Of a stretch of DNA of 32,000 nucleotides, positions 5,433 through 28,631 are shown in pieces. The notes beneath the pieces were generated by a model. The model ran no database searches and was not told the DNA's origin. It saw only the letters and a program-made list of their open reading frames with translations. The stretch comes from Candidatus Nanopusillus sp. Its GTDB lineage: Archaea > Nanobdellota > Nanobdellia > Nanobdellales > Nanobdellaceae. The stretch covers positions 4,293-36,292 of the forward strand of contig JBMSAQ010000026.1 in NCBI GenBank assembly GCA_049414405.1, written 5' to 3'. The translations under genes and the position numbers were made by a program. Positions within the stretch are counted from its first letter, which is position 1, and every line of letters starts with the position of its first letter.

Positions 5433-5761
5433 AATATTTTATATTATAAAAAATTTTATAAAATGTCTTTGCATTCACTTTAAAAAAATAGAAATAAACC
5501 TTCTTATTCCTTAAAATAATAAATTTTTTGTGATTTTAAAAAATTTGCCCTAAAATTTTTTCCATAGATAGTTTTTCCCTCTAAAGATATCTATAATTTT
5601 TCTGTTTAAAAATGTTGTTTATCAAAAAAATTTATAAACAATATTTATAAAATTTTTGATACACATACATCAAAATGTAAGCTAATTATATTATATTTGC
5701 CAGATTTTTATATACTACTAACTAGTAGTTAATTATTTTATTGGTATCTTCTTAAAAATAA
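5433..5761. other. Candidate replication origin region (also holds the cdc6 promoter)
   Basis: Longest non-coding gap in the window (329 bp; most others are under 150 bp), directly upstream of orc1/cdc6. Three copies of the palindromic octamer TTTATAAA (5455, 5631, 5644) and an inverted repeat ACTACTA-ac-TAGTAGT (5714-5729). No canonical ORB consensus recognised. Confidence 0.3.
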
Positions 5762-8492: not shown

Positions 8493-10012
8493 TTACAATA
8501 TTAAAAATAATTCTTTTGGTACGTATAATATATTATCTCTAAATTCTAATTCATAATCTCCGATAACAATTCCATAATTTGATTTATACCTTTTCATACT
8601 ACTTTTTACTTGTTTTTCACCTTTTTGACTTTTTCCAAATTTAACTTCTACAGGTATTATTTTATTATTGTTAGTCTTTATTAAAAAATCTGCACCATTT
8701 TTATTAGGATCGTAAAAAACCTTTATATTTAACATACTATGAGTTATTTGTATTTTATATAATGTTGAAGCTATATATTCTTCAAATAATAACCCAATAT
8801 CTTCACTTTCCTTAAAAGTTCCTAAATCATCTTTTATCATAAATCTTATTGTTGGAGTTATAAAGCAATATTTTCTTTGTTTTCTGCTTATTTTTTCTTC
8901 TCTTCCTAACGGTTTAATAGAAAAAATTAAAGAAGACATTTCTAAATATCTTAAAATATTCTGTACAGAATCTTTATTTATATTTAAACCTTTTGAAATA
9001 TTTTCAATGCTTGTTTTTTCTGCTCCTGCCAAATAATTTATAATTTTTATAGTATCTTCTATACTAGAAGATTTGATGTTCCCGATCTTAGGGATATCTA
9101 AATAAGAGATTTTTTCGATTGTTTCTAGTAGTAATTGTTCAGAATCTTTTTTATATAATGCTGTAAAAGGAAAACCCCTAAATTTTAGGAAATCTTCAAT
9201 TTCAAATGAATATAATTTTATTTTTTTATAGAGTTTTGAGATTTCAATATTATTAAAAAATTCTTTAGGAAATTCAGGAATAAATGTATCGTTATTTAAT
9301 AATTTTAGTATTTTCTTTTTAAGTATTGCGGTTTTATGATATTCATCCGACTTTTTTAATATTTTCAAATATTCAATAAAGCTTAAAGGAAATAAATATT
9401 CTTTTTTAGCCCTTCTTGCCAAATCTGCACCAGTTTCTTTTTTTAATTCTAATGCGGAGGAACCCGTGGCAATTATAAATATATTTGGATATTCATCATA
9501 AATAATTTTTAATGTTAAAGCCCAATTTGGATTATGGTTTACCTCATCTAATAATAAAAATACGGATTTTTTAGAGGTTGCTAAATCTTCAGATAAAATC
9601 TTAGATTCATAGACTTCTATACAAGACATTAAATCAGAATTGAGACTTTTTAATTTGTCTATAGATATAAACAGTATTCTTTCTCTAAATATATTCTTTT
9701 TTTGAATTAAATACAAATATATTTGATATAATAACGTCGTCTTACATGTTCCTCTTAATCCCGGTATGATAATTAATCTATTAATTTTTTCTTTTTTTCA
9801 AGAAAATTATCTATGTGGTTTTTTATTCTAGAAAAAATATGTCTTGTTGGAAGAGGTTTATCATTAGGGTCTGTGGTATACTTTAAAGCCAACTTTTCTG
9901 TATACAGTATTCTTTTTTTTAGGTAGGTTTTTAGTATATCAATATCTATGATATTGTAATAACATTTAATATTATAAATATTGTTATGTGTCATAATAAT
10001 CGGTATTAACAC
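8493..10012 (-). pseudogene. COG1373-type AAA+ ATPase (DUF4143 family), split by a 1-nt frameshift in an A7-G-A6 tract
   Basis: ORF 9773..10012 ends ...RHIFSRIKNHIDNFLEKKKKLID*. In the next frame the sequence continues KKEKINRLIIIPGLRGTCKTTLLYQIY and runs straight into the 407-aa ORF (8493..9716, which has only a TTG start). The P-loop therefore lies between the two tracked ORFs. The Walker A reads GLRGTCKT (Cys where the invariant Gly of GK[ST] should be). Confidence 0.6.
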
Positions 10013-10154
10013 GCCAATAACAACATACCGGTGTTTAGTATTTACATATATTGTTTTTTCATAGCTGTTGGTATATTAATATTATATTTGTATCCTAAAA
10101 ATCAAGATGAAAGTATAAATTATTATTGTACTAAATTTTGAGATAAAGAGAAAA

Positions 10155-12719
10155 TTATACTATCTTATTTAGTTCTTTTAAACTTCTTTTATCCAAATCT
10201 TTTAATATTATCTGATACAAATTATCATTTTCATCAACAAACAAAATTTTATCATCAAAATTAAATATGTTTTTTGGAGAAATTACCTTTATTTCTAATT
10301 CTTTATTATTTATAAAACTATTTAAAGTTATTGTTTCCCCTTCAACTTCTATTTTCTTTATTTTCTCTATTTTATATATTATAGAATTATATCTAATTGC
10401 ATTTTCTAGTATTTTCCTTGAATTTTCATCTAAAATTGTATAATCTTCTAATAAAAATATTTCATTGAAATTATCATTATAAAATCCTATAAATTTTGGA
10501 TTTGATATTGGAAATAACAATTTAGGCATGATATTTTCATATTTTTTACCGTTATATATAATATTTACTCTACTAGGTCTATCAGTTGATTCTATTTTCA
10601 TATTTTTATCCTTTATTATATTTAAATTAAATATTTGGGGTTTTTCATTAACTTTTTCAATTCTTTCTATATTTTCTATTTGATTCTTAAACAATTCATA
10701 GAATTTTCCCTTTTTCTTAATTAATTCGTTAGGTTTTCCCTCTTCTACAATTCTTCCATCTTCTATAACAATAACCCTATCCATATTTAATATTTCCGAC
10801 AAATTATGCGAAATATATATTAAAGTTTTATCCTTTGAAATATTTAATATAGAAGAAAAAATTTGTTCTCTACTTTTTGAATCAATATTCGATGTTAATT
10901 CATCAAATATAAATATATCGGAATTTCTTATTATATTTCTTGCAATTGCTATTTTTTGTCTTTGTCCTCCAGATAATTTTGTTCCTTCTTCTCCTGCCAG
11001 AGTATCATATGCAAATGGTAATTTAATTATATCATCATGTATATTTACGATCTTACATACTTTAATTATTTCTATCTCATTTATGTTTTGATTTCCATAA
11101 GATATATTATATTTAATAGTATTATCAAAGATTTCTGGATTTTGAGATAAATAAGAAATTTTTTCTCTAAGATATTTTAAATCTATATCTTTTATATTTG
11201 TATTTCCAATTAATATTTCTCCATCGGTTACATCATAAAATCTTAATAATAATTTCGTAATTGTCGTTTTTCCTGCACCATTTTTTCCAACGATAGCAAC
11301 TTTTTCTTTTGGTTTTATTGTAAAAGAAATATTTTTTAATATAGGAAAACCCGGTTCATATCCAAATGTAACATTAACAAATTTTATTTCATCAATAATA
11401 TTGGGTTTTAAAGCGTTTTCTTTATTTAATATTTTTGGTTTATCTTCTAATAATTCTAATATTCTTTCAGCGGAAATTAGAACGTTTGGTATATCTCTAA
11501 AAAACCTTTCGTATGTGATAAGTGGACCATAGATATTCGATGTATAAGTTATAAAAGCAATTAATGTACCCAACATAATCAAATCATTAATTACAAAGAT
11601 TCCACCCATGTACCACAAAAATACAGTAGTCAATTCTAATATAAGAAATGAAAAATCACCTCTCATTGTAATAAGTTTTCCCACTTTAATATCTATTAAA
11701 TACCAAGAGTTTATTATGTTTTTTGTTTTTTCATATTCTTCCTTTTCTTTTGAGAACAGTTTGATACTGTAAAAATTCCTTAGAATATTATTTACTTGAG
11801 TTTCAACATCTACAGACTTTATTCTGGCTTTTTTACTGGCTATTCTAATTTTTCTTTCATAAATTATAAAAATTGTAAAAATAACTGCTGTTGTAATTAT
11901 TACAGGTATTGCTAAAAAAGGCAATAGAAAGAAAAGTATAATAAGACTTCCAATAAGTAATAAAGTATCCATAATTACAATGGGCAATTTTAAAATAAGA
12001 CTATTTATCTCTTCTATATCAGATTGATATCTAACAATTAATCTAGAAGGAGAATATTTTTCTACAAAGGAAACATCGTTAAAAATTATGTGTCCTAATA
12101 ATAGCTCTCTTATTTCTTTTGTAATTTTTGTTTGTATAATATTTGATAAAAAATTTCCTATCAAATATAAAAGCCTATAAGCAACGAATGATATTAACAT
12201 TAAGAAAATTATTGTGATAAATATGTCTAGTGATGGCGTTTCTGATATAAGAACTTTATTTATTAGTAGAGCCGTTAAATAAGGAGGAACCAGGTTTATT
12301 ATAGTACCCACAATAAAGATAATAGTAATTAAAGCAAGTTCTTTCCTATATTTTTTAATAATTTGTATTAAAAACCCACATATTTCTTTCTTTGATCTTT
12401 TCTTTTCTTCTTCCTTTTCAATTATTTCTGTTTTTACTTTTAAATTAAATTCATCTACAATTTTTTGTATGTTATCTGCCTTTTTCTTTGTAAAATATGC
12501 AACCTCAAAAACATTTTTATCTTTATCTATTGCAATTAATTTACATATACTTATTCCATATTCTATATCTAACTTTTCTACATTATCAATTTCTAATATT
12601 TTATTATTATTATTATCATATACAGAAATTTTATCATCTAAAATTTCAATAGTTTCTTCAGTAAAATTGAGATTTCTATCAAGATTGGTTTTAAATATCG
12701 CTTTAAAATGATAAGTCAT
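10155..12719 (-). CDS. ABC exporter, fused permease-ATPase (type I exporter fold) with extra N-terminal (~110 aa) and C-terminal (~170 aa) domains
   Basis: Multiple hydrophobic helices in the TM region before the NBD. NBD motifs: Walker A VGKNGAGKTT, signature LSGGQRQ, Walker B IFIFDE, H-loop ISHN. The extensions lie outside the canonical TMD-NBD core. Confidence 0.85.
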   Translation of the reverse strand: MTYHFKAIFKTNLDRNLNFTEETIEILDDKISVYDNNNNKILEIDNVEKLDIEYGISICKLIAIDKDKNVFEVAYFTKKKADNIQKIVDEFNLKVKTEIIEKEEEKKRSKKEICGFLIQIIKKYRKELALITIIFIVGTIINLVPPYLTALLINKVLISETPSLDIFITIIFLMLISFVAYRLLYLIGNFLSNIIQTKITKEIRELLLGHIIFNDVSFVEKYSPSRLIVRYQSDIEEINSLILKLPIVIMDTLLLIGSLIILFFLLPFLAIPVIITTAVIFTIFIIYERKIRIASKKARIKSVDVETQVNNILRNFYSIKLFSKEKEEYEKTKNIINSWYLIDIKVGKLITMRGDFSFLILELTTVFLWYMGGIFVINDLIMLGTLIAFITYTSNIYGPLITYERFFRDIPNVLISAERILELLEDKPKILNKENALKPNIIDEIKFVNVTFGYEPGFPILKNISFTIKPKEKVAIVGKNGAGKTTITKLLLRFYDVTDGEILIGNTNIKDIDLKYLREKISYLSQNPEIFDNTIKYNISYGNQNINEIEIIKVCKIVNIHDDIIKLPFAYDTLAGEEGTKLSGGQRQKIAIARNIIRNSDIFIFDELTSNIDSKSREQIFSSILNISKDKTLIYISHNLSEILNMDRVIVIEDGRIVEEGKPNELIKKKGKFYELFKNQIENIERIEKVNEKPQIFNLNIIKDKNMKIESTDRPSRVNIIYNGKKYENIMPKLLFPISNPKFIGFYNDNFNEIFLLEDYTILDENSRKILENAIRYNSIIYKIEKIKKIEVEGETITLNSFINNKELEIKVISPKNIFNFDDKILFVDENDNLYQIILKDLDKRSLKELNKIV

Positions 12720-12815
12720 AAAATATAAAAACCTTAAATGAGTTAAAAATTTTATCGTTATATATTATAAAACTTTATAGATAAATTTGTATAGATAAAA
12801 GTATATTTATAATTT

Positions 12816-13055
12816 ATGCCTAAAGGACGGAAAATGGTTTCAATACAAGTAAGAGAGGAAGAATATAAAAAAGCAAAATAACCAGGTATTAATATTTCTG
12901 AAGTATTAAAGAAAGCACTAAGAGAAGAAATTAAAAGAAAAGAAGAAGAAAAAAGATTGGAGACAATAAAAAGGTTAGGAGAGTTATTAGAAAAATCAAG
13001 TATAACTCCAGAAGAAAATATAAAGATAATAAGAGAAATTAGAGAAGAAAATTAA
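12816..13055 (+). pseudogene. vapB: RHH/VapB-like antitoxin gene interrupted by an in-frame TAA at codon 22
   Basis: ATG 12816: MPKGRKMVSIQVREEEYKKAK-TAA(12879-12881)-PGINISEVLKKALREEIKRKEEEKRLETIKRLGELLEKSSITPEENIKIIREIREEN, stop 13053-13055, 1 nt before the ATG of the PIN gene. This is the beta-strand plus helix layout of ribbon-helix-helix antitoxins. Confidence 0.55.
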
Positions 13056-13056
13056 A

Positions 13057-13456
13057 ATGAAATATACAATCAATACTTCTGCTTTAATAGATGTTGTGTT
13101 GAAGTTCTATAAAGAAAACCCAAATTTTATAAACGGGTTAATTGAAGAGAGTATCTTTCCAGATTTAATATTTTATGAAATTGGAAGCTATTTAAGAAAG
13201 TATAAAGAAATAAAGAAAGTTTCTAATAATGAAATAAAAGAAATAACGGAATTATTTAATTATATAATCGGAAAAGCCAAAATAGAGGGCAAGATTAAAT
13301 TATGAAATTCTAGATTTATTAACAAAAGAAAATTTATCATACTATGATGCAGTATATTTATATTTAGCTAAGAAATATAATTTAATTTTAATTAGTGATG
13401 GTAAAGGTTTAATTGAAAAAGGTGCTGTAAGTTCTGATAATTTATTAAAAAATTAA
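13057..13456 (+). pseudogene. vapC: PIN-domain VapC-like toxin gene with a frameshift and an active-site substitution
   Basis: Frame 1 (13057..13305) begins MKYTINTSALIDVV (Asn where the first catalytic Asp of LDTSALI normally sits). The PIN C-terminus ...RLNYEILDLLTKENLSYYDAVYLYLAKKYNLILISDGKGLIEKG... continues in the +1 frame to the stop at 13454-13456. Total length is 400 nt, not a multiple of 3. Confidence 0.6.
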
Positions 13457-13551
13457 AAATTTTGTTTATCTGAAATACTAGAAGAGTTGTTTCTGATTTT
13501 TAAAATTCTTTTATAGTGTTTTAGTAATCAGACATGGAATTATCCTCTACC

Positions 13552-14328
13552 CTAAAAAAATTCATATAAGAAACGATAATACAAAAGAGCTCTACTAACA
13601 TAAATGTCTTTATTTGGATCTGTGTCTATTCCTATGCGGTTATTGATAATTCCTGCTTCATTCTTAATAATATAATAATTCATGTTCCCGCTTGGACGTA
13701 TTATTGATTTTTTCCCCTTAACGTTGTTTAGCTTATAAAGTAAATAACCCACTATGTGTGGGGGTATAGATTTATGAATGAAAATTCTTATGTGGGTACG
13801 ATCTGGATAGAATTCCATATAATATTGTATTGAGGGGTTATTAGTTCCGTTATAATAAGATATAGGCAAGCCTCTAGCTCCAACGTTTCCTATTGGCTTT
13901 TTTAATATATCAATCAAAGTTTCTTTTCGTTTTTCCGGATTTCCGGCTACATCGAATGCAATTTCTATATAATAATTGCTATTTGGATTTACTACATTAT
14001 TATGTTTTGGTAAAGAATTAAAGAACTCTTTTCTTATTTTTTCTATTTTATCATCAAGATCTTCTAACATGTTAAAATACTGAGATACAATATGTAAATT
14101 TACAGAAAATCCTCTAAAACGTGCAAATCGGTCAATAGAATTTAGTACCTTATCAATATTGTTCTTATTGATAGTACTAAAGTAAGGTTCTATTTTTTCT
14201 TTATTATGCTTTATATATTCTGCTATCTGTAATTTTTCATCATCTGAAAGATTCCATCTATTACTTATTGGTTTATAATAAGGATTAATATGCTTCTTAA
14301 ATTCGGCCTTTATTTTATTTAGTACCAT
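13552..14328 (-). CDS. Hypothetical protein (258 aa), no family recognised
   Basis: Long ATG ORF with non-repetitive, mixed-composition sequence (e.g. RFARFRGFSVNLHIV, GARGLPISYYNGTNNPSIQYYMEFYPDRTHIRIFIHKSIPPH). Confidence 0.5.
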   Translation of the reverse strand: MVLNKIKAEFKKHINPYYKPISNRWNLSDDEKLQIAEYIKHNKEKIEPYFSTINKNNIDKVLNSIDRFARFRGFSVNLHIVSQYFNMLEDLDDKIEKIRKEFFNSLPKHNNVVNPNSNYYIEIAFDVAGNPEKRKETLIDILKKPIGNVGARGLPISYYNGTNNPSIQYYMEFYPDRTHIRIFIHKSIPPHIVGYLLYKLNNVKGKKSIIRPSGNMNYYIIKNEAGIINNRIGIDTDPNKDIYVSRALLYYRFLYEFF

Positions 14329-14465
14329 ATAATAATAATAGTAATAATAATATTTATAAACATTATTTCTTTAAAATTCTAGTTTGTCTCCGAGTAGTTA
14401 CTTATATGAATGCAAACCACCAGGTTTTATTAAAAATATTGAAAAAATGTAGTTTAAACAAAATC

Positions 14466-14549
14466 CGCCGCGGGTGGGATTTGAACCCACGCCCCCTTTC
14501 GGGGATATGGTCTCCAGCCATACCCCTTGGTCCGCTCGGGCACCGCGGC
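14466..14549 (-). tRNA. tRNA-Ser (GGA), class II with long variable arm
   Basis: Manual cloverleaf, 84 nt: GCCGCGG-UG-CCC-GAGCGGACCAA-GGG-G-UAUGG-CUGGAGA-CCAUA-UCCCCGAAAGGGGGC-GUGGG-UUCAAAU-CCCAC-CCGCGGC-G. No intron, no encoded CCA. Confidence 0.9.
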
Positions 14550-14554
14550 ATAAA

Positions 14555-14613
14555 TGTCCCCCGCCCATCGCTACCAATATTCATCTTTTCATATTGGTTC
14601 GTCTAAGCGGGGA
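14555..14613 (-). ncRNA. Candidate single-hairpin H/ACA guide sRNA, 5 nt upstream of tRNA-Ser
   Basis: Minus-strand RNA: UCCCCGC / UUAGACGAA / CCAAUAU / GAAAAGAUGA / AUAUUGG / UAGCGAUGG / GCGGGGG / ACA. That is a 7-bp lower stem (6 WC plus a U-G that exists only on this strand), a 9+9-nt internal pocket, a 7-bp upper stem, a 10-nt loop bracketed by GA...GA (K-loop-like), and ACA directly 3' of the stem. It is the only GC-rich non-tRNA island in non-coding DNA. Confidence 0.4.
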
Positions 14614-14649
14614 TACATATTTAATATAATTTAATACAAAAATATTTTT

Positions 14650-15582
14650 ATGTTAACAAGAAATCTATTGGAAAAGATAAATCAAAAGATAAATCAAATA
14701 AAAAGAGGTGAAGAAAATTATGAGGAAGAAAAAATTAATATTGAAAAGTTAGATTTAGATAATTTTGAAGTAAAAGAAAAGAAAAAATATGGATTTATAG
14801 ATTCTTCTCATGTAAATGGGATTGTTGGACCTTATAGTTATATATATTCTAGAGCAGTAATTGTTTCTGATGACATATATGAAATTATAGATGATATAGA
14901 ATTTTTTGAAACATCTTTTATAAGATCAATGAATAATGAAAATTTTGATATTCAAGACATTTCAGAATTATTATCGAAAAATTTAGAATATAAGTTGGCG
15001 AGAAAATATTCTGATAGGTATATATTTATAGATGGATCAATAATATCGGATTCTATATTATATTCAAAATTTTTTGATAATTTTTATGATGAGAATATTG
15101 AAAATAGGAGAAAAGAATTCTTAGAGAATTTCGAATATTTAATGAATGATGGAAATCTATCGGCAGTCGCAAAAAGAATATTAAATTTGGATATAATAAA
15201 AACTGGCAGATCGGATTTATTAACATTGATGAAAGTTTTTCCATCAGAAATATTTTATACAAATATTAAGGAAAAACAATTAAAAGAATTTTTAGGTTTT
15301 AAAATTCCAAACTGTTCATTTTGTAATAAAAAAATATATATGATATATTTCAGGGCTAGATATAATGATCATATATATAGATTGGAAGGAATGGAGAAAA
15401 TTGGAAAAGAAAAGTTCAAAGAAATAATAAAAGAAGTTGTTTATGATCAAAAATCTTATCCTAAATGGTTAAAGTTAGCTCACAACTTATGTAAAATAAC
15501 AAATAAGGAAAAATTAAGATTAGAAAGTTATATTAAGAAAAATTTGGGATTTGAAAAAACTATTGGTTGGGAAACTCATTAG
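14650..15582 (+). CDS. nurA: NurA-family nuclease
   Basis: Three blocks typical of NurA as I recall it from Sulfolobus: KYGFIDSSHV...YIYSRAVIV, DRYIFIDGSIISD, and C-terminal SYPKWLKLAHNLCKI (YP..L..AH). 310 aa. Confidence 0.6.
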   Translation: MLTRNLLEKINQKINQIKRGEENYEEEKINIEKLDLDNFEVKEKKKYGFIDSSHVNGIVGPYSYIYSRAVIVSDDIYEIIDDIEFFETSFIRSMNNENFDIQDISELLSKNLEYKLARKYSDRYIFIDGSIISDSILYSKFFDNFYDENIENRRKEFLENFEYLMNDGNLSAVAKRILNLDIIKTGRSDLLTLMKVFPSEIFYTNIKEKQLKEFLGFKIPNCSFCNKKIYMIYFRARYNDHIYRLEGMEKIGKEKFKEIIKEVVYDQKSYPKWLKLAHNLCKITNKEKLRLESYIKKNLGFEKTIGWETH

Positions 15583-15655
15583 GGTCCGGGGCGGGATTTG
15601 AACCCGCGATCTTCGGGTCCACAGCCCGACGCCTTACCACTAGGCTACCCGGACC
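15583..15655 (-). tRNA. tRNA-His (GUG) with genome-encoded G-1
   Basis: Manual cloverleaf, 73 nt: G(-1)-GUCCGGG-UA-GCCU-AGUGGUA-AGGC-G-UCGGG-CUGUGGA-CCCGA-AGAUC-GCGGG-UUCAAAU-CCCGC-CCCGGAC-C. The 3' end abuts the NurA stop codon. Confidence 0.9.
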
Positions 15656-15684: not shown

Positions 15685-16851
15685 TTAACCAATATAAATT
15701 AAAGGCATTACACCATTTGGAGGATATGCTCTAGCTACTACCCATTGTACATATTGAAGTGATGTATAGCCACTGGTTCCTGCACTTATTTGTAATGTAC
15801 CATATTGGAAAGGATTATAGTTTAAATTATAATATGTATAATTTCCATAATTTGGATTATATGATAAATGATACATGTTTAATAAAGTTAGTGGAACCCA
15901 TACTTGATTAGAATTATAAATATAGTATCCTGCTTGTGCATATGTCAAATTAACTATTAAATATGAATAAATAGTTCCTGCATTTGGTGGGAAATATGTA
16001 TAATTCAAATATTGATAAGTTACTGCGGATTTTAACATTGTTGCTCTGCTTAGGGGTGGATAAGTACCGCCCCAATACTGAAATTGTACATATGTAGATA
16101 AATTAGATGTTGTTGTAGCACCACCACATGTAGTATAACTTCCTCCTGTTATATTTGTCCCACCGCAGCCACTAGAAACTATGGGAGATGCAATACCACC
16201 AGCAAAAAATTGTTGATTTGTATTTCCAAATAATGCTATTACATTTGCATCTGCACTAAGTGTATGATACCACACTTCCTCAACAATTAAAGGTATTAAA
16301 GGAATATTCCAATTGTTTGGGGGTAAAATATAAGTACCCTGATAATAATTATTTGTCATTTGAATACCATTTGGAGTTGCTGTAGGGGAAAATGATCCAT
16401 AAAAAATATATCCGATCCATCCATCCATTGTATTATTAAAATATCCATATACTATAAATACATATTTTCCATTATCATATTGTCTAGAAGGATCTACATT
16501 TGGAGAAACACCTACATATGGATAATATTGTTGATAATAATTTGAAGAACTATTTCCTATATACATGTATATAGTTACATTACTATTTGCAGGAATACCA
16601 CTATCTAATTTTACCCACCAAATTTTACAATATATACTTCCATTTATTAATTGACCTAAATACCATGAATATATATCTGGAGTACTATTACAGGTTGTAG
16701 TAAAATATACATTAGATCCATTACTATTAATTAAATTAAATAAAGTTACATTGTTTACATAAGCAAAATGGGGACCTATATTTATACTTCCATTACATAT
16801 TGCTATTTGTTGTTGGAATGGTGCAGGTGTTGGGATATTTTGAGTATTGTA
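15685..16851. repeat. Dispersed direct repeat, copy A (partner 27240..28346)
   Basis: By-eye alignment of 16561-16820 against 28056-28315 gives 20 mismatches in 260 nt. Collinear similarity runs from the stop codon to the YNTQNIP junction. Confidence 0.85.
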
Positions 16852-17382
16852 TAATATTAAAGTTAAATAAGATGGTTGGCAGATAAAGGTACTTGAAGTA
16901 GAATCTGATATATTAAAGACAATTGGTGGTTGAAAATAGTTAATTAAAGGATTTGAAATATATTCTATATTAAATGATCCAATTATATTATTAGCTATCC
17001 CAACTTCTAATTTATAATTTCCATTTTGATTTGGAGGGGTTTGGGATAAATTTGCAACAACAATTAATAGACCATTATCATATGGATTTACAATCGATCC
17101 ATTCGAATTATAAGGATAAACTTTTACTAATCTGCCATTTAGAATTGCAAATACTTGAGAATAATTAACAGGTTCTGAAGGTTTTACATATGCATATAAA
17201 GTATCATTTGCTATAAAGTAATCAAGTAATTGGAAATTTAACTTTATAGATTTTGAAATTTCCTGCCCAGTTGGATTTATTATATTTAAATTGGGAGAAA
17301 TTATATTATATATTGTTATAGTAACAAAAGCGCCAATCACTAATAATAGTAATGCTGTAACTATCTCAGATTGTAATCTCAT
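15685..17382 (-). CDS. Large surface (glyco)protein, paralog A: ArlF/G-like N-terminal helix plus beta region fused to a ~390-aa Tyr/Trp/Asn-rich domain
   Basis: N-terminus MRLQSEIVTALLLLVIGAFVTITIY. About 18 N-x-S/T sequons by hand count. From residue 178 (YNTQNIPTPAPFQQQIAICNG...) to the C-terminus it is homologous to 27240..28631. Third gene of a tightly packed operon. Confidence 0.7.
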   Translation of the reverse strand: MRLQSEIVTALLLLVIGAFVTITIYNIISPNLNIINPTGQEISKSIKLNFQLLDYFIANDTLYAYVKPSEPVNYSQVFAILNGRLVKVYPYNSNGSIVNPYDNGLLIVVANLSQTPPNQNGNYKLEVGIANNIIGSFNIEYISNPLINYFQPPIVFNISDSTSSTFICQPSYLTLILYNTQNIPTPAPFQQQIAICNGSINIGPHFAYVNNVTLFNLINSNGSNVYFTTTCNSTPDIYSWYLGQLINGSIYCKIWWVKLDSGIPANSNVTIYMYIGNSSSNYYQQYYPYVGVSPNVDPSRQYDNGKYVFIVYGYFNNTMDGWIGYIFYGSFSPTATPNGIQMTNNYYQGTYILPPNNWNIPLIPLIVEEVWYHTLSADANVIALFGNTNQQFFAGGIASPIVSSGCGGTNITGGSYTTCGGATTTSNLSTYVQFQYWGGTYPPLSRATMLKSAVTYQYLNYTYFPPNAGTIYSYLIVNLTYAQAGYYIYNSNQVWVPLTLLNMYHLSYNPNYGNYTYYNLNYNPFQYGTLQISAGTSGYTSLQYVQWVVARAYPPNGVMPLIYIG

Positions 17383-22314: not shown

Positions 22315-25300
22315 ATGAGTGATGAGAGATTTATAAAAGAGGTTTTTCGTGGAAAAAAGGAAGAAGAAATTGTTTTAGGACAAAAAAATCATAAAATAAA
22401 AAAAGTTATTAAAAGAGACGGAAGAATTGTGGACTTTGACCCTGAAAGAATAAAATATGCTATAGAAAGAGCAATGAAAGCTGTTGGTGCTTATGATAAA
22501 GAAAAATTAGAAAAAATTGTTGATTATATAATAAAAGTATTAGAGGAAAAATATGATGATATAAAATATCCAACTGTTGAAGAAATTCAAGATATTGTCG
22601 AATTATCTTTATTAAAATTTGATTTATATGATGTTGCCAAAGCATATATTTCCTATAGAAAAGAAAAGGAAAAAATAAGGGAAGAAAAGAAGAATTTACT
22701 GGGAAAATTCTATGAAGAAGAAGTTGCAAAAAGATTTTCTGTTAATTCAATTAGATTAATGGTAAATAGATATTTATTAAGGAATGAGAATAAAGAATTA
22801 ATAGAGGGTCCAAAACAAATGTTTGAAAGAGTTGCTGCATTAATCATAATACCAGATTTATTATATGATGAAAGAATATATGATAAGGAAGGAAAGCAAA
22901 GAATACATCCAAAGGAAGAATTTGACTTCGTAAAAAATGAAAATAAATATGGATTACCAATAAAAGATCCTAAATTTAAATGGAATAGATACCATTTAGA
23001 AAGAATGAAATATTTGTATGATTATTTAAATGAAAGAGGTCATATGAAAGTTTCATGGTCAGAATTTATAAAAATGTTAGAAAATGGAGAATTTGACAAA
23101 TATTACGAAAATTTCTACCAATATTATGATTTAATGGCAAGTAAAAGATTTATGCCAAATTCTCCAACATTATTTAACGCGGGTGCTGTCTTAGGACAGT
23201 TATCTGCATGTTTTGTATTGGATATTGATGACGATATGGAATCAATAATGAAATCTGCAACAGAAGCAGCTTTAATATTTAAATCAGGGGGCGGAATTGG
23301 AATAAATTATTCAAAATTAAGACCCGAGGGCGATGTTGTTGCATCTACTGGTGGTATTGCTTCAGGTCCAGTTTCATTTATGAAAATCATAGACACAATT
23401 ACAGATGTGGTAAAACAAGGGGGAAAGAGAAGGGGAGCAAACATGGGTATTTTAGAATCCTGGCATCCGGAAATATTTAAATTTATTCATTTAAAGGAAA
23501 AAGAAGGTGTATTAGAAAACTTTAATATATCTATAATGTTTGAGCCAACATTTTGGGAATATTTTGAAAATAAAAAAGAATATCCTTTAATTAATCCAAG
23601 ATTATTAAGGAGATATAATTTACCTTTTCCAGGAGATCCAAATTTTGATATAAATAAAGTACCAAAGGAAGCAATTGTTGGATATGTAAATCCTGAAAGA
23701 ATACTACAAGAAGCATCATATGTTGCATGGGAAAAAGGAGATCCCGGATGCTTGTTTATGGATAATATAAATAGAAGAAATGTTCAATATAAATATAGAG
23801 GACCAATTAGAGCTACTAATCCATGTGTAACTGGAGATACTAGAATTTTAACTCCGTATGGTCTTTTGAGGGCCGAAACCCTACTTTATTTAAACAATGA
23901 AAATGGTAGCGATATCAACAATATAGAGCTTTTAGTAGATGGAGAAGGTGAAATTTTGTATACAACAGTTCATGGAAAAACATTGAGTGTAAGTTCTCCA
24001 ATATTGGTTGATGCAAAAGTTTGGAAAGTTGGATTTAAACCAACCGTTAAATTAATTTTAGAAAATGGAATGGAGATTGAAGTAACTGAAGATCATAAAA
24101 TACTCACAAAAGATGGCTGGATAGAAGCAAAATATGCTGAAGGAAAGGAAGTAAAGATAGCAAGAATTGATATTGATAAGTTAGAAAACTATGGATTAAA
24201 AGAAATTGATGGAATAAAATTAGATAGAGAATTGGGATTTTTATTAGGATGGTTGGTTGGAGACGGATATGTTGGGGAAAAAGTGTTCTTCTATTTTAAT
24301 ACTAAAACTGAAAAAGAAGTTTCCGAATATGTAAAAAAATTGCTTGAAAAGAAATTTGGAGTAAATGTTAGTAGGTTCGAAAGAAATAATGAGATATGGA
24401 TTTATGTTGGTAAGAAGGAAGTTGTTGAAATTTTCAAAAAACTAATGAGAAGGAAAACAAGCTTGCCAGAAATTGTTTTCCTAGCAAATTCGGAATTTGT
24501 TAAAGGATTTTTGAGTGGGTTGTTTTCAGCGGACGGATATTTCGATAAAGACAGAGCAATAAGATTAATATCATCTAATAAAGATTTGTTGAAGGAAACC
24601 CAACTTTTACTAACTTTATTCGGTATATTTTCAAAGATTTATGAGAGACCATATAAGAGAAAGTTTGAGTATATTACTGTAAATGGTGAAAGAAAAGAAT
24701 ATGAAACTAGAGGTTATTTTGAGCTTATAATCAAAAACTATAGTAGGAAAATTTTTGAAGAAAAGATAAAATTGATAGATTATAAAAACAAAAAGCTTCC
24801 GGATGGACTAAAGAAAACTAAAATAGATGATAATTATGTTAAAATTTTAAGAGTAGAATATGTTGGTGAAAAATTGGTTTATGATTTTAGTGTTCCGGGA
24901 TTTAATAGATATATTTCTAACGGAATAATAAGTCACAATTGTGGAGAACAACCTTTATATCCTTATGAATCTTGTAATTTGGGATCAATTAATCTATATG
25001 CTTTGGTTGAATTTAAAGATGGAAAGGTTGAATTTAATTGGAATAAATATATTGAAACAATAAAATGGGCTTATAAATTTTTAGATAATGTAATAGATGT
25101 AAATAAATATCCAATAAAGGAAATTGAAGAAGCTTCGAAAGCAGTAAGAAGAATTGGACTTGGATTTATGGGATTGGCGGATATGTTATATGCATTGGGA
25201 ATTCCATATACATCTGAAGAAGGATATAAATTACTAATGAAAATAACAGAATATTTAACATATTATTCAATGTTAGAATCTGTTGAAAGGGCAAAAACAA

Positions 25301-26217
25301 GGGGTAAATTCGATAAATATGATCAAACAACATATAAAGATGGTAAATTACCTGTAGAAGGATATTATCATAGAGAGTTATGGACATTAGATTGGGAATA
25401 TTTGAAAGAACAAATAATGAAATATGGAATAAGAAATATTGAAGTTACTTCAATTGCCCCTACAGGTTCTATATCAATGTTAGCGGATACATCTTCAGGT
25501 ATTGAACCACAATATTCTTTAGTATATGAAAAAAGAGTAACTGCTGGTATATATTTTTATGTAGATCCAGAATTAGAAAGGCAATTGAGAGAAAGAGGAC
25601 TATATAATAATGATATATTAAAGAAAATATCTGATAATGGTGGAAGTTTATTGGGAATAAAAGAGATCCCAGATGATTTGAAAGCAATATTCTTAACAGC
25701 ATTAGATATGCCATGGTGGGATCATATAAGAGCACAGGCAGTTGCTCAAATATGGATAACTACATCAATATCAAAGACAATAAATATGCCAAATTGGGTT
25801 CAGCCAGATGACGTATATTATTCATACTTATTAGCATATAAGATGGGATGTAAAGGAATTACAATATATAGAGATGGATCAAAATCTGTACAAGTATATG
25901 TAGCTCCTGCTGAAGCAAGTAAGGCAAGATTTGCAGATTACTTTAGACTAATTAGAGAAGGAAAAATAAATAATAAAACAGTTGAAATATTAAAACAATA
26001 TGGAATAAAGTTACCAAACTGGTATTATGAATTAAATAACAACGTTGAGATACCAAAAGTAAAATTGAATGTAAACATTAATAATACATTAAGGGTTGAA
26101 GAAAATGGAAATAATAAAATTGAGAAATGTCCTGTATGTGGATCTATGAGGTTAAAACATCAAGCAGGTTGTATTACATGTATAGATTGTGGATGGTCGG
26201 AATGTATAATTGCTTAA
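22315..26217 (+). CDS. nrdJ: Ribonucleotide reductase, class II (B12-dependent) type, with N-terminal ATP-cone, one intein and a C-terminal Cys4 zinc ribbon
   Basis: ATP-cone [35 protein letters not shown]. Active-site TNP-[intein][19 protein letters not shown]. [23 protein letters not shown]-terminal CPVCGS...CITCIDCG. The class II call rests on the archaeal-type layout and Zn-ribbon tail (inference). Confidence 0.9.
23824..24939 (+). mobile_element. Intein (372 aa) with LAGLIDADG homing-endonuclease domain, inserted in the RNR active-site NPCGE motif
   Basis: Starts with Cys ([13 protein letters not shown], block A). Block [14 protein letters not shown]. Two LAGLIDADG motifs, [14 protein letters not shown] and [12 protein letters not shown]. 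Blocks [12 protein letters not shown]...NGIISHN, followed by the +1 Cys (CGEQ). In frame: 1116 nt. Confidence 0.9.
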
Positions 26218-27239: not shown

Positions 27240-28346
27240 CTAATCAATGTAAATTGAAGGCATTGCACCATTTGGAGGATATGCCCTAGCAATTACCCAT
27301 TGTACGTATTGATATGAATAAGCACCACTAGTTCCAGCACTTATTTGTAATGTACCATATTGGAATGGATTATAATTTAAATCAGACCATACATATCCAT
27401 CCCAATTTATCTTATATGTATTTAATAATGTTAAAGGTATCCATGCATAACCATAATAACTATATATATAATATCCTGCTTCTGCATATGTTGAATTAAC
27501 TATTAAATATGAATAAACAGTTCTTCCATATGGTGAGAAATACACATAATATAAATATTGGTTAGTTACTGCAGATTTTAACATAGCCGCTTTACTATCG
27601 GGTGGATCAGATCCATAATAATACTCAAATTGCACAAATGTAGATAAATTGGGTGCGGGTGTAGCACCACCATAAGTAGATCCAATCGTACCAGCTAAAA
27701 GTTGCTGGCTCATATTTCCAAACAATGCTATTACATTTGCATCCGCGCCCTTAGTATGATACCAAGCTTCTTCAACAATTAAAGGTATTAAAGGTATATT
27801 CCAATTATTTGGAGGTAAAATATATCTACCTTGATAAGTTTGATCGGCTAACATTTCAATACCATACGGAGTTGCTGTAGGAGACCCTAATCCCGCATAA
27901 ACATATCCAGTCCATCCATCAAATGTATTGTTAAAATATCCATATGCTATGAATACATATTTTCCATTATCATATTGTCTAGATGGAAATACATTTGGAG
28001 AAGCACCAACATATGGATAATATTGTTGATAAAAATTTGAAGAATTATCCCCTATATACATGTATATAGTTACATTACTATTTGCAGGAATACCATTATC
28101 TAATTTTATCCACCAAATCTTACAATATGTACTTCTATTTACTAATTGACCTAAATACCATGAATATATGTCTGGAGTACTATTACAGGTTGTAGTAAAA
28201 TATACATTAGACCCATTTCTATTAATTAAATTAAATAATGTTGGATTATTTACATAAGCAAAATTAGGACCAATATTTATTGTTCCGTTACATATTGCTA
28301 TTTGTTGTTGGAATGGGGATGGTGCAGGAATATTTTGGGTATTATA
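27240..28346. repeat. Dispersed direct repeat, copy B (partner 15685..16851)
   Basis: Same as copy A. Same orientation, about 11.5 kb apart. About 60 nt shorter, mainly because copy A carries a Gly/Thr/Cys-rich insertion. Confidence 0.85.
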
Positions 28347-28631
28347 TATTGTAATTGGAATATATTGATTATATCCTATATTAATATAACTGGAATAATT
28401 GGAATAATTATTTAAATAATTGTTAGAAGTATTTTGATAATTATTAGCACTTGTAGTATTAGAACTTATAATAGTATGTGTTGTAAGATTTTGATAGTTA
28501 TTAGAACTGGTAATATTTGTTGAACTGTTTGTTAAATTTGGCTTATTAAAAAACATATTATATCCAAAATATATACCAACTATTGCAACTATAATTATTA
28601 AAATTATTATTAATAAAGCATTAGATTTCAT
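27240..28631 (-). CDS. Large surface (glyco)protein, paralog B: signal-anchor plus Asn/Ser/Thr/Tyr stalk plus the domain shared with 15685..17382
   Basis: MKSNALLIIILIIIVAIVGIYFGY anchor. Residues ~30-90 are almost only N/S/T/Y/Q. From YNTQNIPAPSPFQQQIAICNG (residue 96) to ...ARAYPPNGAMPSIYID it is collinear with paralog A. About 17 sequons by hand count. Confidence 0.7.
   Translation of the reverse strand: MKSNALLIIILIIIVAIVGIYFGYNMFFNKPNLTNSSTNITSSNNYQNLTTHTIISSNTTSANNYQNTSNNYLNNYSNYSSYINIGYNQYIPITIYNTQNIPAPSPFQQQIAICNGTINIGPNFAYVNNPTLFNLINRNGSNVYFTTTCNSTPDIYSWYLGQLVNRSTYCKIWWIKLDNGIPANSNVTIYMYIGDNSSNFYQQYYPYVGASPNVFPSRQYDNGKYVFIAYGYFNNTFDGWTGYVYAGLGSPTATPYGIEMLADQTYQGRYILPPNNWNIPLIPLIVEEAWYHTKGADANVIALFGNMSQQLLAGTIGSTYGGATPAPNLSTFVQFEYYYGSDPPDSKAAMLKSAVTNQYLYYVYFSPYGRTVYSYLIVNSTYAEAGYYIYSYYGYAWIPLTLLNTYKINWDGYVWSDLNYNPFQYGTLQISAGTSGAYSYQYVQWVIARAYPPNGAMPSIYID

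Follow-up and report, generated by a model that had tools for sequence, protein, structure and literature searches.

A predicted single-hairpin H/ACA guide RNA for 23S rRNA position U2504, located upstream of tRNA-Ser in Nanopusillus

The closest described counterparts of the RNA element considered here are the K-loop H/ACA motifs of Thermococcales and Methanococcales (Pf9/Pab160, Pab91 and the third hairpin of HgcG/Pab40, Rfam RF00064), which combine a lower stem, a pocket, a 'GA stem' of 10 layers, a K-loop of the form GA...GAUGA and an ACA box 14-15 nucleotides (nt) from the closing pair, and which target domain V of 23S ribosomal RNA (rRNA). The 10-layer GA stem and the 14-15-nt ACA distance determine which archaeal H/ACA motifs are productive (Toffano-Nioche et al. 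2015, PMC4652768). Among the Nanoarchaeota, N. equitans has a 159-nt H/ACA small RNA (sRNA) with two hairpins, encoded between NEQ389 and NEQ392 (Randau 2012, PMC3491384). Genes for sRNAs and transfer RNAs (tRNAs) of that organism have a box A at -26 as a rule, and in its tRNA-C/D dicistrons a C/D guide RNA abuts the tRNA with no room for separate signals, RNase Z being the tRNA-processing nuclease proposed to separate them. In this study, we analysed a 32,000-nt stretch of DNA from Candidatus Nanopusillus sp. (contig JBMSAQ010000026.1, positions 4,293 to 36,292; hereafter the window) and describe a hairpin of 60 nt on its minus strand (14613-14555), directly 5' of tRNA-Ser(GGA). The organism is a terrestrial, hot-spring nanoarchaeon whose genome measures about 0.6 Mb.

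The hairpin shares the lower stem, pocket, GA stem, K-loop and ACA distance of the Thermococcales and Methanococcales motifs, as well as a predicted target in 23S domain V, but there is no sequence homology past the motif, the guides and the target differ, and the 3' duplex of the hairpin has a mismatch and a bulge. With the N. equitans sRNA (PMC3491384) it has in common the nanoarchaeal host, a box A promoter (putative here), GA motifs for L7Ae binding and ACA boxes. The GA motifs of the N. equitans RNA, however, are internal k-turn bulges, whereas here they lie in an apical K-loop, and that RNA has no link to a tRNA. We rejected orthology of the two RNAs on account of the two K-turn hairpins, the different pockets and the different locus in N. 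equitans. Compared with the N. equitans dicistrons, the guide is of the H/ACA instead of the C/D type, it precedes the tRNA, and RNase P would be the separator, an arrangement that is impossible in N. equitans because RNase P is lacking there. The hairpin type, a canonical single-hairpin K-loop H/ACA guide, is already known; the gene arrangement is unusual, and a literature search turned up no report of an H/ACA-tRNA unit. Judged from sequence comparisons, the hairpin is very probably a genuine H/ACA RNA, and it is likely that it represents a single-hairpin guide for U2504 of 23S rRNA which in Nanopusillus is joined to the upstream side of tRNA-Ser.

Fold and conservation of the hairpin

The minus strand from 14618 to 14550 reads AUGUA UCCCCGC UUAGACGAA CCAAUAU GAAAAGAUGA AUAUUGG UAGCGAUGG GCGGGGG ACA UUUAU and is followed by G1 of tRNA-Ser at 14549, a position on which both tRNA finders (ARAGORN and Rfam) agree. 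The GC content of the window is 25%, and the only intergenic 40-nt segments with at least 50% GC belong to four tRNAs and to the hairpin, which extends the tRNA-Ser island. As a 65-nt RNA, the minus strand folds with -26.7 kcal/mol (z = -6.3), a stability reached by 0 of 200 shuffled sequences; the plus strand folds less well (-20.6 kcal/mol, z = -4.4). In the minimum-energy structure an A14598-U14573 pair is added at the base of the upper stem, which then has 8 base pairs (bp), and two U.G pairs (14606/14565 and 14605/14566) lengthen the lower stem to 9 bp (6 G-C and 3 U.G pairs), leaving a pseudouridylation pocket of about 6+6 nt. The stack that runs from the closing A-U pair up to the second G.A pair has 10 layers (8 pairs plus 2 G.A pairs), ACA lies exactly 15 nt 3' of the closing A-U pair, and the apical loop follows the K-loop pattern GA-N5/6-GA, for which L7Ae binding is predicted. 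The hairpin belongs to the '10/6/9' class of productive folds of Toffano-Nioche et al. 2015 (PMC4652768). Overall, we found the characteristics of an archaeal box H/ACA RNA: a lower stem within the range of 7-9 bp, a K-loop, ACA within 14-16 nt, a predicted bipartite target and covariation of the stems.

Rfam at gathering thresholds reported only tRNAs in the window. A permissive scan by E-value aligned the hairpin to the third hairpin of HgcG/Pab40 across the stems, GAUGA and ACA (23 bits, E = 1.5e-4). We rejected membership in RF00064, as the score compares with a gathering threshold of 77 bits and this hairpin alone aligns out of an architecture of three. A strict C/D-box pattern had no match in the window.

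Upstream of the hairpin, on the opposite strand, lies the divergent gene nurA, which encodes a NurA nuclease. Its identity to the NurA proteins of Candidatus Nanopusillus acidilobi 7A and three Nanopusillus metagenome-assembled genomes (MAGs) is 89-93%. We traced NurA homologues down to 47% identity to their contigs and searched for the hairpin upstream of nurA. It was present, divergently oriented, in 8/8 further distinct loci and in every Nanoarchaeota lineage retrieved, always with a spacer of 29-48 nt to the nurA ATG. The homologous loci are L006, YN1 (L007), Nanobdella aerobiophila (L008/L009), a Nanopusillaceae MAG (L010), L011/L012 and L013. A covariance model built on the family found exactly one copy per locus (72-95 bits); neither the window nor 240 kb of related loci contained a paralogue. 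A weak extra match at L017 7846-7891 was discarded as a perfect hairpin with no pocket. It is a perfect 12-bp inverted repeat, GCCAUGUACAUC...GAUGUACAUGGC, followed by ACA about 85 nt upstream of the Nanopusillus 16S gene; lacking an internal loop, it is not an H/ACA motif and may be a pre-rRNA processing or promoter-proximal element.

In the alignment of 11 sequences, 96.3% of the cells at paired columns are paired and 5 pairs have changed on both sides, a number matched by 1 of 500 shuffles; when the partner columns were slid by 1-3 positions as a control, about 50% were paired and 1-2 two-sided pairs remained. The lower stem occurs as CCCCGC/GCGGGG, CCCCGU/ACGGGG, CCCCGG/CCGGGG and CCCUGUC/GACAGGG, and the upper stem as CCAAUAU/AUAUUGG, CCGGUGU/ACACCGG and CCAAUG/CAUUGG. 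The loop GA...AUGA is invariant around a variable middle, ACA is present in 11/11 sequences and stands 14-16 nt from the closing pair, the distance being 14 nt for L013, 16 nt for L006 and 15 nt for the others (window, YN1, Nanobdella, L010 and L011), and the 10 layers are found in every lineage, with layer 8 being a U.U or A.A pair in two of them. Retention of the U.G pairs in 10-11 of the 11 sequences shows that the minus strand is the one that folds.

The locus had been singled out in a sequence-only reading, based on the letters of the window and its open reading frames (ORFs), as a candidate H/ACA guide fused to tRNA-Ser. Folding, the intergenic GC windows and the tRNA finders bear out its description of a minus-strand stem-loop-stem hairpin that is the sole GC-rich non-coding island besides the tRNAs and whose ACA stands 5 nt ahead of G1 of tRNA-Ser on the same strand. 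Its GA...GA K-loop is the invariant part of the loop, its choice of the minus strand agrees with the retained U.G pairs and the more stable fold, and the covariation among orthologous loci that it had proposed as a check was found as compensatory changes in both stems. Two details were revised: the internal loop, drawn as 9+9 nt, is closed to about 6+6 by one A-U and two U.G pairs, and the distance from upper-stem base to ACA, given as 16 nt, becomes 15 nt with the A-U closing pair.

Predicted target in 23S rRNA

A Nanopusillus-specific 16S oligonucleotide (Wurch et al.) served as a metagenome pattern and led to two contigs, L015 and L022, with complete 16S and 23S. We scored every U in the Nanopusillus 16S plus 23S with an energy-style function and converted positions to E. 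coli numbering by alignment to rrlH. The top site, with -8.8 against +0.7 for the runner-up, lies in the 23S sequence ...GCGA CAUCG A U G UCGUCU CUCC..., at large-subunit positions 2554-2567 (L015 3968-3981), which correspond to E. coli C2498-U2511; 6 of 400 shuffled guide pairs reached that score anywhere. Its central U, U2560 in Nanopusillus, is the equivalent of E. coli U2504 in the peptidyl-transferase centre. The 5' guide AGACGA forms a perfect duplex of 6 Watson-Crick pairs with UCGUCU, the 3' guide CGAUG forms 5 Watson-Crick pairs with CAUCG, and U2504 and G2505 are left unpaired between the two duplexes. A2503 is opposite the conserved A14572, and the guide nucleotide 14571 is extra and presumably bulged. 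As expected for a base that does not pair, 14571 is the sole variable position of the pocket (G in the window, A in most relatives, U in Nanobdella, deleted in L013); the U of Nanobdella would be able to pair with A2503. According to published work, discrimination depends on the 5' duplex, which should reach about -6 kcal/mol or better, and the 3' duplex may consist of just 1 bp.

Nanopusillus, YN1, L006 and Nanobdella share the 5' guide AGACGA, of which L013 has GACGA, and CGA of the 3' guide is invariant across the lineages. The guides of YN1, Nanobdella and L013 choose the same U2504 site. Nanobdella's own 23S (L029, around 10270), which we found through a spurious ORF inside the rRNA gene and which comes from the same Logan sample (DRR287719) as its hairpin locus L009, has the identical target. 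Guide nucleotide A15 complements U2509, and a U at this position is specific to the lineage (Nanopusillus and Nanobdella); N. equitans and most of the archaeal sequences returned have a G there (UCGGCU), and G2509 of N. equitans would mismatch the guide of this hairpin. The 23S-like fragments L026-L028, with a further U at 2499, were set aside as not attributable to any lineage with a hairpin.

The sequence-only reading had written the target as a fully complementary site of 9+2+9 nt, of which partial matches were to suffice; what exists is CAUCG-A-[U G]-UCGUCU with a 3-nt spacer. A scan of E. coli rRNA for the expected target gave nothing convincing, and the target pattern had 3 matches in the window against 1.2 expected, at most chance level. 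The broader expectation, a bipartite complement flanking an unpaired U in the organism's rRNA, did come true in the Nanopusillus 23S. In our first scan, which required pairing flush at the pocket top and missed U2504, a weak 6+3 site at 16S position 1393 came out on top; it fails with the Nanobdella guide and was dropped. The stretch 3882-4190 of L015 and 65 database 'proteins' (P0020-P0084) are spurious ORFs called in the peptidyl-transferase-centre region of archaeal 23S. Such 'proteins', of which public collections hold dozens, are annotation artefacts; they served as handles to retrieve rRNA.

Several observations weigh against the proposed H/ACA guide and its U2504 target. The significance of the target is moderate, about 1.5% by guide shuffling, and this figure is optimistic because the pairing model was widened after the site had been seen. 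The 3' duplex is irregular, with the A2503/A14572 mismatch and one bulge, and the target spacer is 3 nt, whereas the canonical one is 2 nt; a 3-nt spacer has been proposed for Pa19-S1017, for which the same authors then prefer a refolded alternative. The distant lineages L010 and L011 have CGAAGA or GGUAGA as their 5' guide, and neither sequence fits UCGUCU; this may reflect retargeting, covariation of the rRNA in helix 90, or guide decay. The equivalent of U2504 is absent from the mapped P. abyssi pseudouridines (with an offset of +92 deduced from the Pab35 targets), and the sole H/ACA RNA seen in N. equitans RNA-seq is a different one with two hairpins. The Rfam score is far under the RF00064 threshold, and Gar1 was not found by name in the gene table of N. 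acidilobi. On balance, we still favour U2504 as the target of the hairpin.

Linkage to tRNA-Ser and alternative explanations

In Nanopusillus, L006, L010 and YN1, ACA is followed by tRNA-Ser after 5, 4, 3 and 1 nt, respectively (tRNA-Ser(GCU) in L010), and these spacers have no space for a separate promoter or terminator. The T-run of Nanopusillus is located after the tRNA and not after ACA. A spacer of 1-5 nt implies one transcript that would be cut by RNase P. Folding of a 161-nt transcript containing both elements gave the hairpin and the tRNA cloverleaf as independent modules. The literature lists RNase P for both Nst1 and N. acidilobi, and the gene table of the latter includes POP5 and component 4. 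From this arrangement we consider a hairpin-tRNA dicistron cut by RNase P rather probable.

The tRNA does not follow the hairpin everywhere. In L011 and L013, ACA is followed by a T-rich stretch and no tRNA, and in Nanobdella by GAAUAUAAACAAUUUCG, with neither a tRNA nor a clear T-run. The tRNA-Ser of Nanobdella is beside the L18 gene, about 4 kb from the hairpin, with a 1320-codon ORF in between. The hairpin without a tRNA in these three lineages is therefore an independent unit and not merely a tRNA leader. The fusion to tRNA-Ser in the sequence-only reading thus describes the four loci in which the two abut but not these three; the same stand-alone copies argue against a pure leader structure, which that reading had named as an outcome that would refute it. 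The linkage conserved everywhere is that of the hairpin with nurA, not with the tRNA. It was likely kept because two divergent promoters interlock in the spacer of about 30-50 nt.

The tRNA-Ser gene itself occupies the same syntenic slot with different anticodons, GGA in Nanopusillus, YN1 and L006 and GCU in L010 and Nanobdella. Comparison of window 14466-14549 with L010 (around 8830-8913) and L008 (2669-2754) showed near identical tRNAs that differ only in the anticodon arm, which looks like anticodon remoulding of one gene.

Two alternatives accept the hairpin as an H/ACA RNA. It could form a genuine H/ACA ribonucleoprotein (RNP) for which U2504 is not the substrate, acting on another site in a tRNA or other RNA, as an orphan, or as a chaperone of rRNA folding. 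The mismatch and bulge needed for the 3' duplex, the 5' guides of L010 and L011 that differ although the hairpin is kept, the weaker 16S 1393 site and the limited choice of tRNAs inspected (only 4 of this genome) speak for this; we nevertheless regard it as unlikely, because the guides of four independent lineages all have U2504 as their clear best site, the 6-bp 5' duplex is perfect and includes a lineage-specific rRNA base, and the 16S site fails with the Nanobdella guide. In the other alternative, the H/ACA RNA and the adjacent tRNA-Ser would be made separately. A promoter within the hairpin would drive the tRNA, and the 3' end of the sRNA would arise by termination or by exonuclease trimming instead of RNase P cleavage. 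Indeed, AAUAUU of the upper stem lies about 27-32 nt upstream of G1 of the tRNA, the leaderless tRNAs of N. equitans start from a box A at -26, and in Nanopusillus a short U3 run follows ACA. However, YN1 has a spacer of just 1 nt, L010 and L006 have one of 3-4 nt, and none of these contains a T-run; the upper stem varies by covariation (UCAUUGG in L006) and retains no conserved TATA, and RNase P is reported in the lineage; a T-rich stretch after ACA appears in L011 and L013, which lack the tRNA, although not in Nanobdella. Separate synthesis is thus an improbable account of the locus.

The two other alternatives deny the hairpin a guide function altogether, and we give both very little credence. 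Direct adjacency of the tRNA in Nanopusillus, YN1, L006 and L010 would suit a mere structured 5' leader or stability element of pre-tRNA-Ser with an incidental likeness to H/ACA RNAs, but the covarying hairpin persists without the tRNA in Nanobdella, L011 and L013, which largely refutes this idea, and it is the nurA linkage that is universal while the tRNA-Ser of Nanobdella stays by the L18 gene. That position, which every lineage keeps at 29-48 nt before the nurA ATG, would equally suit an inverted repeat that acts as DNA, for instance an operator within the promoter region of the divergent nurA. Here the U.G pairs of 10-11/11 sequences would be A/C mismatches on the other strand, the large internal loop of asymmetric sequence, the GA...GA loop and ACA are conserved yet not palindromic, and the minus strand folds better. 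The likely reading therefore remains a single-hairpin H/ACA guide RNA for U2504 that is joined to tRNA-Ser in Nanopusillus.

Proposed pathway, gene neighbourhood and implications

The features of the locus are listed in Table 1. We propose that the gene encodes a single-hairpin archaeal box H/ACA guide sRNA of about 60-65 nt, which would be transcribed on the minus strand from its own promoter in the AT-rich spacer of about 36 nt shared with the divergent nurA. The RNA would fold into the 9-bp lower stem, the 6+6 pocket, the 8-bp upper stem and the GA...GA K-loop; L7Ae would bind the K-loop, and Cbf5-Nop10(-Gar1) the ACA box, lower stem and pocket. The pocket would pair with 23S rRNA on either side of U2504-G2505 (AGACGA with UCGUCU, CGAUG with CAUCG), and Cbf5 would turn U2504 (Nanopusillus U2560) into pseudouridine. 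In Nanopusillus and some relatives, transcription would continue into tRNA-Ser 1-5 nt downstream, and a cut by RNase P at G1 of the tRNA would both mature the tRNA and make the 3' end of the sRNA (ACA plus 1-5 nt).

Table 1. Features of the hairpin locus in the window
Feature	Sequence	Position	Strand	Basis or remark
nurA, divergent		14650..15582	plus	
Putative TATA/box A of sRNA	AAAAAUAUUUUU	14638..14649	minus	Position alone; about 26 nt upstream of hairpin base; abuts ATG of divergent nurA; surrounding region AT-rich throughout
Lower stem, 5' strand	UCCCCGCUU	14605..14613	minus	Sequence, fold, covariation at alignment columns 11/59 and 14/57
5' guide strand	AGACGA	14599..14604	minus	Complementary to 23S UCGUCU (E. 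coli 2506-2511)
Upper ('GA') stem, 5' strand	ACCAAUAU	14591..14598	minus	Fold; compensatory A-U to G-C at three pairs
K-loop	GAAAAGAUGA	14581..14590	minus	Terminal G.A and A.G sheared pairs, presumed L7Ae site
Upper stem, 3' strand	AUAUUGGU	14573..14580	minus	Fold and covariation
3' guide strand	AGCGAU	14567..14572	minus	CGAU(G) complementary to 23S (C)AUCG (E. coli 2498-2502)
Lower stem, 3' strand	GGGCGGGGG	14558..14566	minus	Fold and covariation
ACA box	ACA	14555..14557	minus	15 nt from upper-stem closing pair
Spacer, 5 nt	UUUAU	14550..14554	minus	Would be tRNA 5' leader and sRNA 3' tail
tRNA-Ser(GGA), CCA not encoded		14466..14549	minus	ARAGORN and Rfam
T-rich stretch after tRNA-Ser	GAUUUUGUUUAAAC	14452..14465	minus	Likely joint-transcript terminator; role suggested by sequence

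The gene and proteome table of N. acidilobi lists a pseudouridine synthase (arCOG00987) and L7Ae, both detected in the proteome, and a Zn-ribbon RNA-binding protein (arCOG00906) adjoining eIF2-alpha. The window itself encodes none of Cbf5, Nop10, Gar1 and L7Ae. We take the synthase of N. acidilobi to be of the Cbf5 type and its arCOG00906 protein to be Nop10. Of the 46 RNAs in the published annotation of that genome, 43 are tRNAs and none is a guide RNA; the hairpin sRNA is therefore apparently unannotated.

The neighbourhood differs among the relatives. Compared with YN1 (L007 9200-9800), L006 and L010, Nanopusillus has an insert of about 6 kb between the L18 gene and tRNA-Ser (window 8493-14328). 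It carries genes for an AAA_14/DUF4143 ATPase and for a fusion of an ABC transporter with DUF1854, as well as three ORFs that are small or unknown. On the other side, tRNA-His (15582-15654, minus, with an encoded G-1) lies one base past the nurA stop, giving convergent genes with no spacer, and this convergence is the same in all relatives that have the tRNA. Further away, two proteins rich in Asn and Tyr (15685-17382 and 27240-28631, both minus) are paralogues with long identical stretches, such as QQQIAICNG.INIGP.FAYVNN. Both have a transmembrane segment at the N-terminus, lack a Pfam match and adjoin archaellin-like genes; they are probably surface proteins. GC-rich patches within 27240-28631 were considered as RNA and rejected, being coding (in the paralogue of 15685-17382) and free of Rfam matches. 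An intein with a LAGLIDADG endonuclease splits the large subunit of ribonucleotide reductase (22315-26217, plus; 1300 amino acids). YN1 has an intein as well, whereas the orthologues of Nanobdella and L010 (914-926 amino acids) have none. A very AT-rich gap of 329 nt beside cdc6/orc1 (5433-5761) is a plausible replication origin; it holds only low-complexity inverted repeats and no clear origin-recognition boxes.

Within the peptidyl-transferase centre, U2504 is functionally sensitive, and in E. coli pseudouridine 2504 is made by RluC. The predicted modified nucleotide would be the same here, but RluC is a protein-only bacterial enzyme whereas an RNA-guided Cbf5 RNP would act in Nanopusillus, which would be a case of functional convergence, not homology. 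With regard to the tRNA, a stronger version of the proposal, which we regard as tentative and rather doubtful, is that in terrestrial Nanoarchaeota the H/ACA guide is the 5' leader of pre-tRNA-Ser, with RNase P as the sole maker of the guide 3' end and pseudouridine 2504 coupled to tRNA maturation. Archaeal RNase P itself uses L7Ae, and with L7Ae bound to its K-loop the leader might even assist a much reduced RNase P in engaging the hairpin-tRNA substrate.

With the hairpin, one of the smallest cellular genomes in culture gains a conserved H/ACA gene, and the family can seed a covariance model for the annotation of DPANN genomes. If our reading is true, terrestrial Nanoarchaeota retain RNA-guided pseudouridylation, with a predicted pseudouridine at U2504, a nucleotide which affects antibiotic sensitivity and for which bacteria use a stand-alone enzyme. 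The order H/ACA guide then tRNA would be the mirror image of the tRNA-then-C/D order of N. equitans and workable only where RNase P exists. Hence, the arrangement may serve as a marker of the divergence in RNA processing between the marine, RNase P-less and the terrestrial lineages.

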